NCBI GenBank assembly: GCA_964452295.1 | Contig: CAYVKZ010000001.1 | Coordinates: 56,529 to 120,528 of the forward strand | Reading direction: 5' to 3' | Origin: an uncultured Acidiphilium sp. | GTDB taxonomy: Bacteria; Bacillota; Clostridia; Christensenellales; Borkfalkiaceae | Length of the DNA: 64,000 nt | Shown here: positions 11,544 through 16,828 of the stretch, one piece after another | How positions within the stretch are numbered: position 1 is the first letter of the stretch | How the letters are laid out: each line of letters opens with the position of its first letter | Notes under the pieces: model-generated | What the model was told of the DNA's origin: nothing | The model's database searches: none | Seen by the model: only the letters and a program-made list of their open reading frames with translations | Made by a program: the position numbers and the translations under genes

Positions 11544-12716
11544 GTGTTTTTTATTAAAAGTTTATTTAAAAAGAGTGATAAAGACAGCAAAAAAATTGCC
11601 GTATTTTTCGGCGGAAAATCTACCGAGCACGACATTTCGGTTATAACGGGCGTTTTAACGCTGAACGCGTTAGACTGCGAAAAATACGAGGCGGTGGCGG
11701 TTTTCGTCGATAAAGACGGCAAATGGTACGGCGGAGAGGGGTTAAATAGACTTTCTTTATATAAAAATATTGATTATAAAAAACTAAAACGCTTGTTTTT
11801 TGCTTGTGGCGACGATGTTTTATATTCGATAAACGGCGCAAAAATCGCTCCGTATGCTAACGTTTTCGCGGCGATAAATTGTATGCATGGAATAAACGGG
11901 GAGGACGGCTCGCTTTCGGGAGTTTTGCGGTTGAGCGGAATTCCTTTCGTTTCTCCCGATATTTTTGCGGGTGCCGTGGCGATTGATAAGTATTATACAA
12001 AACTGATTTTAAAGTCGCTTGAAATTCCTTGCGCCGATTACGTTCGCGTTATTCGCGATGAGTTTTATGCTAAAAAACGCGTTGCGCTTGATTATTTAGC
12101 GAAAAAACTCGGGTTTCCGCAAGTTGTAAAGCCCGCGAGGCTCGGCAGCAGTATCGGTATCGAAGTCGCGCATAACGAAAACGAACTTGAAATCGCATTA
12201 ACCGCCGCTTTCCGTTTCGATTGCAATGCTGTTTGTGAAAAATATTTAAGCGGTGCAACCGACGTGAACGTAGCGGCTTTAAAGGCGGGTGAAAAAATTA
12301 GGGTTTCTATTTCGGAAAGAGCTTTAACGGCGAATGAAATTTTAACGTTTGAAGATAAATACGGCGACAACGAAAAGGGCGGAATGGAAAATTCCGGTCG
12401 AAGAAAAATAGCAAACGACTTGCCTTGCTCGATAAAAATGCGCGATATAGCCGAAAAGCTTTATCGAAAATTGGATTTTCGAGGAATCGCTCGGTTTGAT
12501 TTTTTAGTTTTAGGCGAAGATGTTTACTTAAATGAAATAAACGCCGTACCCGGCTCGCTTGCATACTATATGTTCTGCGATAAAATGCGTGATTTTTCGT
12601 TGCTGCTAAACGAACTTATAGAGCAAGCCGTTGCGGATCGCCGTCGCGAAGATAATTTAACGGTTAGTTTTTCTTCGTCGGTTTTAAGCCGAGATTACAT
12701 AGGTGCAAAAAAATAA
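11544..12716 (+). CDS. ddl: D-alanine--D-alanine ligase
   Basis: KIAVFFGGKSTEHDISVITG, GEDGSLSG, and an ATP-grasp C-terminus (NEINAVPGS). The start codon (GTG 11544) is uncertain. Confidence 0.85.
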   Translation: MFFIKSLFKKSDKDSKKIAVFFGGKSTEHDISVITGVLTLNALDCEKYEAVAVFVDKDGKWYGGEGLNRLSLYKNIDYKKLKRLFFACGDDVLYSINGAKIAPYANVFAAINCMHGINGEDGSLSGVLRLSGIPFVSPDIFAGAVAIDKYYTKLILKSLEIPCADYVRVIRDEFYAKKRVALDYLAKKLGFPQVVKPARLGSSIGIEVAHNENELEIALTAAFRFDCNAVCEKYLSGATDVNVAALKAGEKIRVSISERALTANEILTFEDKYGDNEKGGMENSGRRKIANDLPCSIKMRDIAEKLYRKLDFRGIARFDFLVLGEDVYLNEINAVPGSLAYYMFCDKMRDFSLLLNELIEQAVADRRREDNLTVSFSSSVLSRDYIGAKK

Positions 12717-12810: not shown

Positions 12811-13154
12811 GTTTGAGTCGGCTGTGCGGTTGCGGGGCGGAGGCAACGCCTTCGTCACGAGGAAAGTCCGGGCTTCGCAAAGCAGGGTGCCTGCTAACGG
12901 CAGGTGAAGGCGACTTTAAGGAAAGTGCAACAGAAAATTACCGCCGCAAGGTAAGGATGAAAAGGCGAGGTAAGAGCTCACCGGCTCCGCGGTAACGCGG
13001 GGCGCCGTGTAAACCCCACCCGAAGCAAGGTAGGAGCGTGCAAAGGGGCTTTGACCTGCACGTTCGTTCGAATAGCCGCTCGAGCGCGTCGGCAACGGCG
13101 CGCCTAGATAGATAACCGCACCAGACAGAACCCGGCTTATAGGTCGGCTCAAAC
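12811..13154 (+). ncRNA. rnpB: RNase P RNA
   Basis: Universal motifs GAGGAAAGTCCGGGC and ACAGAACCCGGCTTA. P1 pairs gtttgagtcggc (5') with gtcggctcaaac (3'). It forms a GC-rich island in an AT-rich context. Confidence 0.95.
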
Positions 13155-13180
13155 TCATTAAAAAAAAGCGTTAATCGCTT

Positions 13181-13210
13181 AAAACCGCACCCAACTCGGT
13201 GCGGTTTTTT
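13181..13210 (+). terminator. Intrinsic terminator of rnpB
   Basis: Stem aaaaccgcacc/ggtgcggtttt, loop caactc, then a T run. Confidence 0.85.
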
Positions 13211-13301
13211 CGTTATGGTAAAAAAATTACTAAAAAACTTAAAAACTTTAAAACTTTGCATTTTTTAGGCGGAGTTTTTTTTATATTTTTCGTAAAAATA
13301 A

Positions 13302-13330
13302 TTGAGAAAAAATAAGAAGTGTGTTATACT
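13302..13330 (+). promoter_or_regulatory. Sigma-A-type promoter with extended -10
   Basis: TTGAGA (13302-13307), 17-nt spacer, TGtTATACT (13322-13330). Phased A-tracts (aaaaactt repeats, ~13230-13255) lie upstream. Confidence 0.55.
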
Positions 13331-13336
13331 AACTTA

Positions 13337-13531
13337 GCCAAACCAACTTAATAGTATTTTGGGGTATTGGGATAGTCTACCCATTTTTAGGGAATCACTA
13401 TAATTTTAAAATTTGTTAAAATGCAAATTTCGAACAATTATAGTGATTCGGGTATCCCATACTATTTTTGTTGGTTTGGCGACTATCGAAATTTGCGTTT
13501 TATGCGCTTACTTCGGTAGGCGCACTTTTTT
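13337..13531 (+). ncRNA. Candidate structured RNA (rod-like hairpin plus terminator), either an independent sRNA or a long leader of the methylase-nuclease operon
   Basis: The predicted +1 falls on the first base of an 11-bp closing helix (13337-13347 with 13470-13480). Further helices are 13350-13357/13459-13466, 13369-13374/13453-13458, a perfect 14-bp 13392-13405/13436-13449, and an apical 7-bp 13409-13415/13424-13430. It ends in the terminator at 13504-13531. No ORF is present. Confidence 0.45.
13504..13531 (+). terminator. Intrinsic terminator (UUCG tetraloop)
   Basis: gcgcttac-ttcg-gtaggcgc (8 bp including one G-U), followed by acTTTTTT. Confidence 0.75.
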
Positions 13532-13572
13532 ATATAAAGGTGCGACTTTATAAAAAAAGGAGCACTTAACAT

Positions 13573-14633
13573 ATGTCCGGAAATAAGAGTTTGAGGCAAG
13601 CAGATCGAGCAAAGAACGACGAATTTTATACTAGACTTGTCGATATCGAAAACGAATGTAAACACATAAGGAACACTTTAAAAACAAAATAATTTTTTGC
13701 AATTGCGACGACCCTTACGAAAGTAACTTTTTTAAGTATTTTGCGATGAATTTTAATCATTTAGGCTTAAAAAAATTAATCGCCACTTGTTACGACGGTT
13801 CGCCCGTCGCATACACTCAGTTATCCGTCTTCCCTGAAGACGAAAAAAGCTTTTTAAATAAAAATAAGCGAGCCTATAAAATAGAAATAACCGAGGTTAA
13901 AGATTATAACGGCGACGGCGCGGTTGATTTATCGGACGTAGAGTATTTGTTAAAGAATAAGAAAAACACTTTATCCGTTCTTAAAGGTGACGGCGATTTT
14001 CGCTCGCAAGAGTGTATAGAACTGTTAAAAGAAGCGGATATTGTGGTGACTAATCCGCCGTTCTCCTTATTCCGTGAATATGTTGCTCAACTTGTAGAAT
14101 ATGGTAAAAAATTTTTGATTATTGGTAATCAAAATGCTATTACGTATAAAGAAATTTTTCCTTTAATAAAGGACAATAAATTGTTTTTTGGTTTAACAAT
14201 GAATGGAAGCAATCGTTATTTTCAAGTACCCGACGATTATCATTTGACTGAAAAAACTGGGAAAATTATTGACGGAAAGAAATACGCATTTGTTAAAAGT
14301 GTGGTTTGGTTCACGAATTTAGATACAAAAAAACGCCACGAGATATTTCCGTTATACAAGAAATACACACCTGAAGAATATCCAAAATATGACAATTATC
14401 CCGCAATAAACATTGATAAGACAGTAGATATTCCTGTTGATTATGATGGCTTGATGGGCGTCCCTATTACTTTCTTTGATAAGTATAATCCATCTCAATT
14501 CGAAATAATCGACGGGATAGGAAGATACAGCATTTTAGACAACGAGAACACGAGAAAAGATGGAAAATATTTGTCTATGATAAACGGTATGGCGAAGTAT
14601 TTTCGTATTATTATTATTAAGAAAAGGAGTTAG
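13573..14633 (+). pseudogene. M.EcoRI-family N6-adenine DNA methyltransferase with an interrupted reading frame
   Basis: ATG 13573 with an AAAGGAG SD encodes MSGNKSLRQADRAKNDEFYTRLVDIENECKHIR and stops at 13690-13692. The continuation EHFKNKIIFCNCDDPYESNFFKYF.. is in the -1 frame (open from 13662) and runs into ORF 13746..14633, which carries GDGDFRS, VVTNPPFSLFREY, YPKYDNY, GVPITF and YFRIII. Colinearity with M.EcoRI is from memory. Confidence 0.75.
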
Positions 14634-14635
14634 TT

Positions 14636-15745
14636 ATGCAAATAGAATTACATGAAATAAAAATAAGAGAAATAGCTAACGGATATATAGATAGTCAAGA
14701 AAACGGCGTAGTGGGATACGGCGGAAAACTTAATATTCGCCCCGCGTTTCAGCGCGAATTCGTTTATAAAGAAAAACAGCGCAACGCCGTTATCGAAACG
14801 GTTATAAAAGGCTTCCCCTTAAACGTTATGTATTGGGTAGAAGACGAAAACGGCGGTTACGAGCTTTTAGACGGTCAGCAGCGCACTATTTCGATTTGCC
14901 AATACGTTAACGGCGATTTTTCGATTGACAGTAGGGCTTTTCATAATCTTACCGAAACCGAAAAAAATCAAATTTTAGATTATCCGCTGATGATTTATAT
15001 TTGCAACGGCAACGATAAAGAAAAGCTCGATTGGTTTAAAATAATTAATATCGCGGGCGTGCAATTAAAAGAACAAGAACTTCGCAACGCGATTTATACG
15101 GGCGAGTGGCTTTCGGACGCAAAACGATATTTTTCTAAAAACGGGTGCGTTGCCTATCGTTTGGCAAATAAATATCTTAACGGAGAAGTAAACAGGCAAG
15201 ATTATTTGCAAACAGTTTTAAAGTGGATTTCCGCAAAAGAAAATATCAAAATCGAAGATTATATGTCCGTTCATCAGCACGATAGCCATGCAACGCCGTT
15301 ATGGCAATATTTTCAGTCCGTTATAACTTGGGCGCAAACGATATTCCCGAAATACAGAAAGGAAATGAAGGGGCTTGATTGGGGAATTCTATATAATACA
15401 TACGGCGATAAAGTGTATAACCCGCAAAAATTAGAAGAAAAAATAATCGCTTTAATGCAAGACGACGATATAACCAAGCGTTCGGGAATTTACGAATACT
15501 TGCTTTCCGGCAACGAAAAACATCTTAATATACGAGCGTTTACGGATAACGAAAAAAGGCAGGTTTACGAAAAACAAAAAGGTATTTGTCCGCATTGCGC
15601 AGTCGAGCACAGAGATAAAATCCACTACGATATAAGTGAAATGGAAGCCGACCATATAACTCCGTGGTGCGAGGGTGGTAAAACCAACGTAGACAACTGC
15701 CAAATGCTATGCAAAGAACATAACAGAAAAAAATCGAACAAATAA
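14636..15745 (+). CDS. DUF262 (ParB/Srx-like, DGQQR) plus C-terminal HNH (His-Me finger) nuclease
   Basis: FQREFVY...LLDGQQRT (DGQQR at 14870-14884). C-terminal CPHC...EADHITPWCEGGKTNVDNCQMLCKEHNRKK (15650-15724). The ATG lies 2 nt after the methylase stop. Confidence 0.8.
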   Translation: MQIELHEIKIREIANGYIDSQENGVVGYGGKLNIRPAFQREFVYKEKQRNAVIETVIKGFPLNVMYWVEDENGGYELLDGQQRTISICQYVNGDFSIDSRAFHNLTETEKNQILDYPLMIYICNGNDKEKLDWFKIINIAGVQLKEQELRNAIYTGEWLSDAKRYFSKNGCVAYRLANKYLNGEVNRQDYLQTVLKWISAKENIKIEDYMSVHQHDSHATPLWQYFQSVITWAQTIFPKYRKEMKGLDWGILYNTYGDKVYNPQKLEEKIIALMQDDDITKRSGIYEYLLSGNEKHLNIRAFTDNEKRQVYEKQKGICPHCAVEHRDKIHYDISEMEADHITPWCEGGKTNVDNCQMLCKEHNRKKSNK

Positions 15746-15765
15746 GAAAGTTAATTAGCAACAAA

Positions 15766-15792
15766 AAAAGATAGCTCAAAGGGCTATCTTTT
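15766..15792. terminator. Bidirectional intrinsic terminator
   Basis: Stem aaaagatagc/gctatctttt with a 7-nt loop, between convergent genes. Confidence 0.75.
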
Positions 15793-15811
15793 AAAATACA
15801 TTGTTAATTTT

Positions 15812-16828
15812 TTACATCATGTCTACGATTATATGCGGTAGAGGGGCGGCGGTGTTTTTTTCGCCTAAGGTGTTTTTCACGGCTTGTTCGCAACCGTCGA
15901 ATTTAATCGAAGAAAATTGAAAGTTGGAAAAATCAATCGCTTTATTTGCAATTAAATTTATAGCTTGTTCGGTAAATCCGTAACCGTTGGTTATGCATTT
16001 AAAATTGAGTTGTTTTTTCATTGCTAAATGAAAGTTAACGCGAAGATTAGGATTAGAAAACCCGACGAAGCCCATTTTTGCGTTGTTTGCCGCGATTTTT
16101 AAAGCGACGTCGGTGTTTATGTTGCTATCCGAAACGTAAACTACTTTAGAAGCCATACGCGCGCCCGTTCTTTCAGAAACTTCTTTTTCGAGTTTGTTGT
16201 CGGAAAAAAGATTATAATAAACGCCGCAAAGTTTTGCTTTTTCTAAATTTTCGGATTTAGAATCGATTAAAATAGGCACTGCCTGATAATAAATGATAAT
16301 CGTCGAAAGAATTATTCCTATAAGATTGCCGCCGATAACGGCAACGTGTTCGCCTTTTTTGATATCCAATTTATCGATAACAGCGAGCGATAAGGCTACG
16401 TAATCGATAAAAAGTGCGTCGTCGTCTTTAACCGAGGTCGGCAGTGCGTATAAAATCGAATTGTCGACAACGGCAAAATCGCGCAAATAACCGTCGGTGT
16501 TTTTACCTGCAATTCTTTGATTAACGCATTTTTCGGGTTGGCTTATCAAACATTCGGCGCAAGAGCCGCAGTTTTCTACCGAACTTAAATACACGCGAGT
16601 GCCTTTTGTAAGATAAGCCGATTCGCTGGCGTCGGTTATCTGACCGATTGCGATGCGCCCCGGAATAACGGGGTAGGTAACGTCATCGTCGCCGCCGATC
16701 GTTTGAAAATCTTCGGGGGTGAGCATTACTTTGGTAATTTTTACCTTCGAAGAATCTGCGTTATCGCAAATTTCCATTTTATTGATTTTTGTTAGTTTGC
16801 CCTTTTCGGACACTTGTAATCCAAGCAT
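15812..16828 (-). CDS. Zinc-type alcohol dehydrogenase-like (MDR superfamily) oxidoreductase
   Basis: Structural-zinc style CGSCAEC..C and a Rossmann-like VAVIGGNLIG. The substrate is unknown. Confidence 0.6.
   Translation of the reverse strand: MLGLQVSEKGKLTKINKMEICDNADSSKVKITKVMLTPEDFQTIGGDDDVTYPVIPGRIAIGQITDASESAYLTKGTRVYLSSVENCGSCAECLISQPEKCVNQRIAGKNTDGYLRDFAVVDNSILYALPTSVKDDDALFIDYVALSLAVIDKLDIKKGEHVAVIGGNLIGIILSTIIIYYQAVPILIDSKSENLEKAKLCGVYYNLFSDNKLEKEVSERTGARMASKVVYVSDSNINTDVALKIAANNAKMGFVGFSNPNLRVNFHLAMKKQLNFKCITNGYGFTEQAINLIANKAIDFSNFQFSSIKFDGCEQAVKNTLGEKNTAAPLPHIIVDMM

Follow-up and report, generated by a model that had tools for sequence, protein, structure and literature searches.

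Restriction–modification (R-M) systems are controlled, in the textbook cases, by C proteins, by autoregulation of the methylase and by antisense RNA. A covarying terminator/antiterminator RNA switch controlling an R-M system is not described in the literature searched or in Rfam 15. Here we analysed a stretch of 64,000 nucleotides (nt) from an uncultured Acidiphilium sp. (GTDB lineage Bacteria; Bacillota; Clostridia; Christensenellales; Borkfalkiaceae; GenBank assembly GCA_964452295.1, contig CAYVKZ010000001.1, positions 56,529 to 120,528 of the forward strand), which is called the window below. Downstream of rnpB it carries a promoter, a structured leader RNA and two adjoining genes, one for an EcoRI-family adenine methylase (M) and one for a DUF262+HNH nuclease (R). 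An original prediction, made from the sequence alone, had listed a promoter, a hairpin, a terminator, a Shine–Dalgarno (SD) sequence, a methylase and a nuclease at this locus, and all of them were found where it had placed them (Table 1). Our data indicate, with a probability that we put at about 0.72, that positions 13302-13572 form a self-contained module consisting of a strong constitutive promoter and a cis-acting transcription-attenuation leader of ~195 nt. The leader is a previously uncatalogued RNA family. The Rfam gathering scan of the window gave nothing overlapping it, scans of the leader and 14 other copies at E<=10 or E<=0.1 against the 4227 families of Rfam 15 found no family that overlaps it, and the literature searched holds no description of it.

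In the mechanism that we propose, transcription would start at the foot of a long hairpin made of helices P1, P2 and P3, with the first base of P1 (~13336-13337) as the predicted start. The tip of the hairpin would carry segment B, held in the weak apical hairpin A:B, and would be followed by a linker and segment C and then by an intrinsic terminator directly before the ribosome-binding site. In the ON state, the linker and the beginning of C would pair with the loop and 3' arm of the terminator to form an antiterminator (AT), and polymerase would read through into the methylase–nuclease operon. In the OFF state, the emerging segment C would take B over 15 bp as a pseudoknot, which would remove the AT strand and let the terminator fold, with release of a short RNA. 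The number of polymerases reaching the genes would depend on B being free or held in A:B, and whatever stabilises or occupies the apical hairpin, or alters the time of strand exchange, would set the fraction of read-through. The net effect would be that M and R are expressed together from one transcript, at a low level and probably conditionally, in place of the divergent helix-turn-helix (HTH) controller of homologous M-R pairs elsewhere. The computation shows the promoter, the helices and the way they exclude one another, their covariation, the position as a leader, the unity of the cassette and the portability of the leader; where the RNA starts and stops, which way the switch works (B:C as OFF) and that there is a signal are inferred. 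The energies calculated for the window are compatible with such a competition. The minimum free energy (MFE) of 13325-13535 was -73.9 kcal/mol, compared with -38.0 +/- 3.7 for dinucleotide shuffles (z = -9.8, 0/200), and the terminator state (-72.9 kcal/mol), the AT state (-72.4) and the MFE structure, which has a short AT (-73.9), are isoenergetic. The B:C duplex, which appears in the window as inverted repeat I6, has -15.9 kcal/mol compared with -2.2 for A:B.

The helices and the switch were examined in alignment A1, which holds 83 non-redundant leaders aligned with MAFFT and was not fitted to any structure; the proposed helices were tested on it afterwards, with 500 shuffles and with structures slid by 1-3 columns as controls. 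The observed pairing was matched by 0/500 shuffles in all three tests, the slid structures were 35-51% paired, and double changes were seen in 21 to 26 pairs. P1 was 98% and 93% paired with many compensatory exchanges, including a position with AU in 34, UA in 17 and CG in 16 sequences and another with CG in 32 and UA in 29. A:B was 92% paired. The terminator was 97.6% paired, with both-sided changes in six of its nine pairs. The long-range 15-bp helix B:C was 98.2% paired and contains a CG-to-UA exchange in 10 sequences and two conserved U.G pairs. These would be C.A mismatches on the opposite strand, which indicates that the structure is one of plus-strand RNA. The 12 pairs of AT were 92.3% paired, one of them as AU in 33, UA in 24 and GC in 6 sequences. 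AT and the terminator share strands and both show compensatory changes; they are therefore mutually exclusive, and both are maintained in evolution. When homologues were folded singly by MFE, the long hairpin (P1, A:B) appeared in 73 of 76 and the terminator in 51 of 76, with an AT-like fold in the rest. The products of the leaders are very stable rods of -67 to -88 kcal/mol. In the alignment of leaders that lie 5' of the methylase, the promoter, P1 and P2 are conserved, P3 differs wholly in sequence between members and is still paired, the apical sequence is nearly invariant, GAAUUUG-nUAAAAAUG-CAAAUUCC, and a conserved GCGAC-nAU-CGGAGUUUGCGUUUUU lies 3' of P1 before the terminator. Few unpaired nucleotides are conserved, and nearly all conserved positions are accounted for by the competing helices. 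With covariance model R1, built from the 83 homologues, the copy in the window scored 154 bits (E 4e-29) and the next best match in the 64 kb scored 17 bits, so that the window has one copy only. The original prediction had suggested that the RNA be checked for conserved synteny and covariation among homologues of the enzymes, and both were found.

The promoter belongs to the same conserved unit. In the window it matches the consensus at 10 of 12 positions and has an extended -10 element in addition, and in the family alignments TTGA-N17-TGnTATAaT stands at a fixed distance from P1. The interval between terminator and ATG contains no second promoter with a match of >=10/12, in agreement with the earlier view that no strong second promoter precedes the SD. 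According to the same view, expression of the enzymes seems to require read-through of the terminator. This is very probably correct, as a co-oriented SD and start codon lie 14-80 nt past the U-run in ~90% of 111 near-complete copies of the leader (after calling of open reading frames, ORFs).

The leader was also found far from R-M genes. A metagenome search with a pattern taken from segment C and the terminator base only gave at least 120 loci and a search of viral contigs gave 30, and 132 of the retrieved metagenome and viral loci contained the promoter-to-terminator profile. Among the matches listed, the EcoRI-family methylase follows in 10 of these 132 copies, which were retrieved independently of the enzymes, and ~120 other copies precede unrelated genes of more than 50 families. 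In total, at least 150 copies of the family were recovered, the carriers being uncultured gut Clostridia, and the neighbours of the leaders on both sides are extremely diverse. The cargo includes lipoproteins (among them BspA-type leucine-rich repeat proteins), zinc-ribbon and SHOCT membrane proteins, an SPFH protein, an EamA transporter, acetyltransferases, an APH-like kinase, a flavodoxin, a C5 DNA methylase, a D12 adenine methylase and the anti-phage proteins Shedu SduA (313 bits) and Uzume UzuA (172 bits). Plasmid collections gave no leader match, and phage collections gave one uncultured faecal phage record that matches in the C and terminator part only. Since the leader precedes many unrelated genes with an SD right after the U-run, it is a general cis-acting 5' leader whose terminator gates the cargo. 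The RNA is a portable general leader that was adopted by the R-M cassette and is not a partner of the nuclease. Of the roles left open in the original prediction, that of a cis-regulatory leader stood, and those of an antitoxin-like partner, guide or decoy did not survive the scarcity of this methylase behind the copies.

Two subfamilies deviate from the common plan. Leaders linked to methylases, including one before an unrelated C5 methylase, have a hairpin that sequesters the SD; it is confined to this subfamily and would act as an added translational brake. When sequences were folded one by one, 19 of the 20 leaders linked to methylases formed it with -7 to -14 kcal/mol, and compensatory changes occur in loci L004 (GAUGC/GCAUC) and L010 (AGCG/CGCU). 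A short subfamily of 155-170 nt has no P2 and a different A, and retains B:C, AT and terminator with altered sequences. The maintenance of B:C, AT and terminator without P2 suggests that the competing helices are the functional core and that a junction pocket is not. Members of the short subfamily have the apical hairpin UUUUUAC-UUCG-GUAAAAA and are frequent in contigs classed as viral; L201, L204, L205, L214, L217, L222, L223 and L227 come from IMG/VR contigs, and further members are L096, L104, L105, L114, L135, L167, L179 and L192. A 109-nt variant, L116, has no recognisable B segment.

Several points weigh against an attenuator of this kind. The 5' and 3' ends of the RNA are predicted and the direction of the switch is inferred. 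B:C requires a pseudoknot with P1 and P3 intact, which rough geometry suggests is feasible and which folding programs leave unscored. In the short subfamily B:C and AT overlap by ~2 nt only, and there the exclusivity would be steric and not due to shared bases. Part of C and the terminator base belonged to the pattern by which the metagenome copies were fetched, so that the invariance of these columns partly reflects ascertainment; the pattern did not extend to P1, B, AT or the upper part of the terminator. The downstream genes do not share a function, as those behind a metabolite riboswitch usually do. A fixed strong promoter, a base-paired 5' end and a stable terminated product would be equally in keeping with a small RNA (sRNA) that acts in trans. 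Finally, selection may have ceased to act on the copy in the window, given the frameshift in its methylase.

Other ways of operating the switch were considered and rejected. Ribosome-mediated attenuation by a leader peptide was rejected on the grounds that 14 of 83 sequences have no ATG in segment B and that reading frames and stop positions vary. A TATAAT in the P2 loop on the minus strand could suggest an antisense promoter, but it has no suitably spaced -35 element, and P2 is absent from the short subfamily. Segment B and the region of the nuclease start codon share ATGCAAAT, and pairing between them was considered; this likeness is due to chance, because nucleases at other loci start differently, for example with MKIKL.

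The rival that survives best is a true riboswitch, in which the hairpin domain binds a small molecule such as a nucleotide second messenger, and the ligand decides between B:C with terminator on the one side and AT on the other. The terminator/antiterminator directly before the SD is the architecture of an expression platform. The regulon of the c-di-GMP-I riboswitch is heterogeneous and rich in membrane and surface proteins, and the gene set behind the leader, with the same features, recalls it. In locus L100 (872-1371, minus strand), two complete promoter-plus-leader modules stand in tandem before a D12-class adenine methylase, which would also fit a ligand-binding RNA. However, few conserved unpaired positions are left for a pocket, P2 as the sole conserved junction element is absent from the short subfamily, and the conserved module includes a promoter, as riboswitches typically do not. 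We therefore consider a riboswitch unlikely. For the attenuator, a trans-acting protein or RNA ranks first as the input, followed by a small molecule and then by a purely kinetic or constitutive damper. The leaders of L089, L098, L164 and L165, whose cargo is small membrane proteins or lipoproteins, have a conserved divergent gene on the minus strand upstream of them (MANYGKYYIAVRLLLLKQYLEANAG at its start). Reading of its sequence gave it an HTH/WYL-like label, and it is a possible candidate for a trans-acting factor.

The terminated RNA of ~195 nt might itself be functional as a trans-acting sRNA, with the downstream genes exploiting leaky termination. The strong conserved promoter with its start at the foot of P1, the very stable rod with terminator hairpin and U-tail, and the near-identical B and C of all copies, which would let copies act on each other in trans, are all consistent with this. 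Yet AT covaries, which would be purposeless in a pure sRNA, an SD and start codon follow right after the U-run in the great majority of copies, and the window has a single copy. The leader is also absent from a sister species (L231), which argues against a housekeeping RNA such as 6S. Taken together, these points make an sRNA function distinctly improbable. 6S RNA, which the original prediction had named together with a transposable repeat as an identity that would undo it, was rejected: there is no Rfam match at E<=10, L231 has no copy and the contexts are many and unrelated.

The element could also act at the level of DNA, as a miniature inverted-repeat transposable element (MITE), an invertible-promoter repeat or an attC-like recombination hairpin that would explain the exchange of cargo. 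It forms a long, near-perfect inverted repeat, one conserved element stands before diverse cargo, and conspecific strains show mosaic allelic replacement. The attC R''/R' consensus is RYYYAAC/GTTRRRY, and the ends of P1, GCCAAAC (13337-13343) and GTTTGGC (13474-13480), match it at six of seven positions each, probably by coincidence, although the likeness is worth noting in view of the cassette-like variety of the cargo. We nevertheless regard a DNA element as very improbable. The conserved wobble pairs are specific to one strand, with the reservation that G.T would be tolerated in single-stranded DNA; orientation and spacing to promoter, terminator and SD are fixed; and both terminator and antiterminator covary. 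The element does not form arrays: the 64 kb contain one copy, and a locus seldom has two. The neighbourhood has neither an integrase nor a transposase, and the mosaic in strain L236 breaks within conserved stretches, which is what ordinary homologous recombination would produce. The more specific candidates were rejected likewise, a MITE or insertion sequence-derived repeat by the single copy, the fixed orientation to downstream ORFs and the strand-specific G.U pairs, and an integron attC cassette by copies that are single, each with its own promoter and no integrase.

Scarcely credible is a dedicated partnership of the RNA with the nuclease or methylase as a type III toxin-antitoxin (TA)-like inhibitor, retron-like RNA, guide or decoy: the order of promoter, structured RNA, terminator and effector does resemble toxIN (PMC5772629) and the RNA is kept with M-R in ~27 loci, but among the matches listed 10 of 132 independently retrieved copies precede the EcoRI-family methylase and the others unrelated genes, the RNA is missing from 63 of the 80 nearest M-R loci, tandem repeats and a reverse transcriptase (RT) are lacking, and other loci do not show the similarity of segment B to the nuclease start. 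The type III TA and retron analogies of the original prediction fail accordingly on repeats, RT and effector specificity.

The attenuator leader and the enzyme genes form one mobile unit. We searched the best 80 of more than 580 genomic M-R loci for the leader with window positions 13300-13560, by nhmmer with the single sequence and then with a profile. It lies directly 5' of the methylase in 17 of the 80 closest loci, none of which has rnpB and all of which have different upstream genes, and neither the profile nor the covariance model found it in the other 63. Most of these 63 loci have a divergent XRE-family HTH gene (HTH_3, E 1e-13 to 1e-16). As this gene occupies the place of the leader, the same enzyme pair uses either a protein controller or this RNA. 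This bears out the earlier suggestion that the layout is not that of usual R-M control, and the 17 loci show that homologous enzyme pairs do co-occur with the RNA, which is neither 6S nor a MITE. In all, at least 27 loci whose flanks are unrelated have both the leader and M-R, and conservation between M-R loci starts ~25 nt upstream of the -35 element and ends at the nuclease stop codon. In the closest other species, L231 (ADH 82% identical), synteny is the same, with L31-ADH on one side and Ddl-MurE on the other, and the interval between rnpB and the ADH-like gene is ~300 nt of unrelated DNA without leader and without M-R; no leader was found at the syntenic site or elsewhere in the 17-kb locus. 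The absence of the whole block from the sister species and its shared presence elsewhere indicate that promoter, leader, M and R move as one cassette, as the discrete cassette of the original prediction implied.

Conspecific strains L236-L238 have the cassette at the same site, with DNA identities to the window of 96.8% in the ADH-like gene and 94.5% in rnpB. Their methylases are intact (355-371 aa), so that the frameshift seen in the window is either peculiar to this strain or due to faulty assembly. No empty site was found in the same species, and exact insertion junctions could not be derived, as the intergenic DNA of L231 is too diverged and all conspecific strains carry the cassette. Compared with window positions 13285-15811, L236 (Logan SRR10277267) is a mosaic. 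The flank and promoter are near-identical (~95%) up to the -10 element, the body of the leader is then a different variant whose different P1 and P3 are fully compensatory, and identity resumes from the U-run to GGUGCGACUU. The methylases are 71% and the nucleases 86% identical, compared with 96.8% in the flanking ADH-like gene. This pattern suggests that conserved segments of leader and nuclease may serve as recombination anchors for the replacement of methylase, and hence specificity, alleles. In one locus (L013:4671-4893), a methylase-linked leader has lost its -10 box and the 5' strand of P1 through a deletion, and the downstream M and R are intact.

The enzyme pair itself is widespread. 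Thousands of relatives of the nuclease exist at 60-90% identity, and the more than 580 nuclease loci of the genome scan come from Clostridia, Treponema, Bacteroidota, Campylobacterales, Patescibacteria and others. Among the best 80 of them, the methylase lies directly before the nuclease wherever the contig reaches upstream (~75 of 80 loci). The nuclease has an N-terminal GmrSD_N/DUF262 domain (E 4.5e-18), a ParB/Srx-like NTPase with a DGQQR motif, and a C-terminal HNH domain (PF01844, E 1.4e-6). A PADLOC check, which had been suggested earlier, filed the pair as MTase_II and REase_II, the nuclease matching REase_II PDLC03418 over its full length with 463 bits. Neither the nuclease nor the repaired methylase had a match when the PDB was searched by sequence. 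The AlphaFold model of the nuclease was mediocre (pLDDT 70.6, pTM 0.45), and Foldseek with this model gave weak matches at the level of domains only, to BrxU (7p9k), ParB/Noc, SspE (6jiv) and small HNH nucleases (E>=1.3e-3 and TM 0.2 for BrxU and SspE); these matches are in line with the Pfam domains. The locus has the gene pair of a Type II R-M system, a methylase with catalytic and S-adenosylmethionine-binding motifs adjoining a nuclease gene, except that the methylase is not intact in the window. The codons of its residues 1-39 lie at 13573-13692, and from there the gene continues in a different frame to 14633, owing to a 1-nt deletion near 13660-13670 that leads to a stop at 13690 and does not lie in a homopolymer. 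GAATTC occurs 26 times in the window, twice inside the nuclease gene, and is not depleted; GAATTC is unlikely to be the site of the cassette. Other palindromes are under-represented in the window (observed versus expected: GGCC 8 versus 132, GATC 58 versus 177, CCGG 111 versus 220), and ATTAAT is mildly so (10 versus 28). The depletion of GGCC, GATC and CCGG cannot be tied to the cassette, and palindrome avoidance was rejected as a guide to its recognition site; past exposure of the host to other R-M systems is probable. In L008/L197, L146, L056 and L074, too, the methylase is disrupted near its 5' end, by independent events, and the nuclease is intact. This hints that the nuclease may be harmless without its methylase, for example as an M-dependent or tightly silenced enzyme.

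The coordinates of the cassette and its surroundings are given in Table 1. The methylase and nuclease are the only genes of the cassette; no integrase, transposase or RT was found near it, and the interval from rnpB to the methylase has no ORF apart from spurious ones. The genes on both sides are housekeeping genes, as had been stated before. The hairpin downstream of the nuclease serves the convergent ADH-like gene and probably the cassette as well, and it lies outside the conserved cassette, as the 3' flanks of M-R loci all diverge right after the nuclease stop codon. No tandem repeats were found within 13300-13570. Between the rnpB terminator and the leader promoter (13219-13264) lie an A-rich low-complexity repeat, ACTTAAAA, in ~3.5 copies and a 13-nt stretch (13252-13264) complementary to segment B. 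Both are kept in the conspecific strain L236 and are not found family-wide.

Table 1. Positions of the cassette, the parts of its leader RNA and the neighbouring features in the window
Feature	Position	Strand	Details
Ddl gene	11544-12716		Housekeeping flank
rnpB	12814-13155		Rfam RF00010, 277 bits
rnpB terminator	13181-13208		
Sigma-70-type promoter	13302-13330	+	-35 TTGAGA 13302-13307, 17-nt spacer, extended -10 TGtTATACT (-10 13325-13330)
Sensor-side rod-like hairpin, ~145 nt	13337-13480	+	P1, further stem segments, P2, P3, apical A:B
Closing helix P1	13337-13347 with 13470-13480	+	
Side hairpin P2	13368-13383	+	
Helix P3	13392-13405 with 13436-13449	+	
Apical hairpin A:B	13409-13415 with 13424-13430	+	
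Segment B, AAAAUGCAAAUUUCG	13418-13432	+	Apical loop and 3' arm of A:B; complementary to segment C
Antiterminator (AT)	13479-13491 with 13511-13523	+	5' strand from end of P1, linker and start of C; partner is terminator loop and 3' arm
Segment C, CGAAAUUUGCGUUUU	13487-13501	+	Pairs with B; proposed anti-antiterminator; 5' end common to antiterminator
Intrinsic terminator	13503-13531	+	Stem 13503-13511 with 13516-13524, cUUCGg loop, U6 13526-13531
SD-sequestering hairpin	13538-13567	+	AGGUGC-GA-CUUU..AAAG-GA-GCACUU
SD AAAGGAG	13556-13562	+	Methylase ATG at 13573
EcoRI-family (PF13651) N6-adenine DNA methyltransferase	13573-14633	+	NPPF motif; E 8.6e-111; PADLOC MTase_II 322 bits
DUF262+HNH nuclease, 369 aa	14636-15745	+	ORF intact; starts 2 nt past methylase stop
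Hairpin with U and A runs	15766-15792	.	Able to terminate both strands
Zinc alcohol dehydrogenase (ADH)-like gene	15812-16828	-	Housekeeping flank, convergent to cassette

The leader represents a large family of structured RNAs whose carriers, uncultured Clostridia of the gut, are poorly studied, and its 15-bp loop-to-tail pseudoknot is unusual. It stands as a plug-in promoter and switch before very different accessory genes, including several defence systems. For annotation, it accounts for orphan hairpin-plus-terminator regions 5' of hypothetical genes, and it would supply a compact portable regulatory part. More tentatively, the leader may be a portable sensor, a new signal-responsive RNA switch (a riboswitch for a global second messenger, stress or infection cue, or the target of a dedicated antiterminator) that travels with its cargo and joins newly acquired anti-phage systems (this R-M pair, other methylases, Shedu and Uzume), surface lipoproteins and small membrane proteins of gut Clostridia in one host-wide regulon. 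If so, R-M expression would be controlled by RNA rather than by C proteins. Identification of the input would reveal how the expression of mobile defence and surface genes is coordinated in the carriers.

Compared with Type II R-M systems controlled by C-proteins or XRE-HTH (RptR-like) regulators, the cassette shares the low, ordered expression of a horizontally mobile M-R pair. It differs in having no regulator gene or operator repeats but an RNA switch and an SD hairpin, and in the co-transcription of M and R with M first. An HTH controller gene with C-box operators was not found at the cassette, HTH_3 being present only in homologous loci that lack the leader. The nuclease resembles the Type IV enzymes GmrSD, BrxU and SspE in its N-terminal DUF262 with DGQQR and its C-terminal His-Me (HNH) nuclease. 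Unlike them, it has a PF01844 HNH domain and no match to DUF1524, is ~200 aa shorter, invariably adjoins an EcoRI-family methylase and is filed by PADLOC as a Type II REase. Type III TA systems (ToxIN, AvcID) have the same order of promoter, structured RNA, terminator and effector, and read-through likewise sets the dose of the effector. The cassette, in contrast, has no tandem RNA repeats, its effector is not an RNA-processing RNase and its RNA is not specific to the effector; it differs from retrons in having no reverse transcriptase.

Among promoters and RNA switches, the reused or mobile promoters (PMC3575422) and integron cassettes likewise have one conserved non-coding module before many non-homologous genes in different genomes, but the module described here is a promoter together with a complex RNA switch, and it occurs without arrays and without an integrase. 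In countertranscript attenuation (pT181, pIP501 rep) and in the fold-back of hok/sok, as here, a terminator competes with a pre-emptor helix through the engagement of an upstream loop. No conserved antisense promoter was found in our leader, and its competing partner C lies in cis. With the attenuation leaders of Firmicutes (T-box, purine and c-di-GMP riboswitches, PyrR/LicT-type protein-dependent antitermination), the leader shares its location in the 5' untranslated region, an exclusive terminator and antiterminator with an anti-antiterminator, and a terminator that abuts the SD. It differs from them in that it matches no Rfam family, its promoter lies within the conserved module, a 15-bp pseudoknot of loop and tail, reaching out from the tip of a ~130-nt rod, serves as anti-antiterminator, and the genes under its control are functionally unrelated and mostly accessory.

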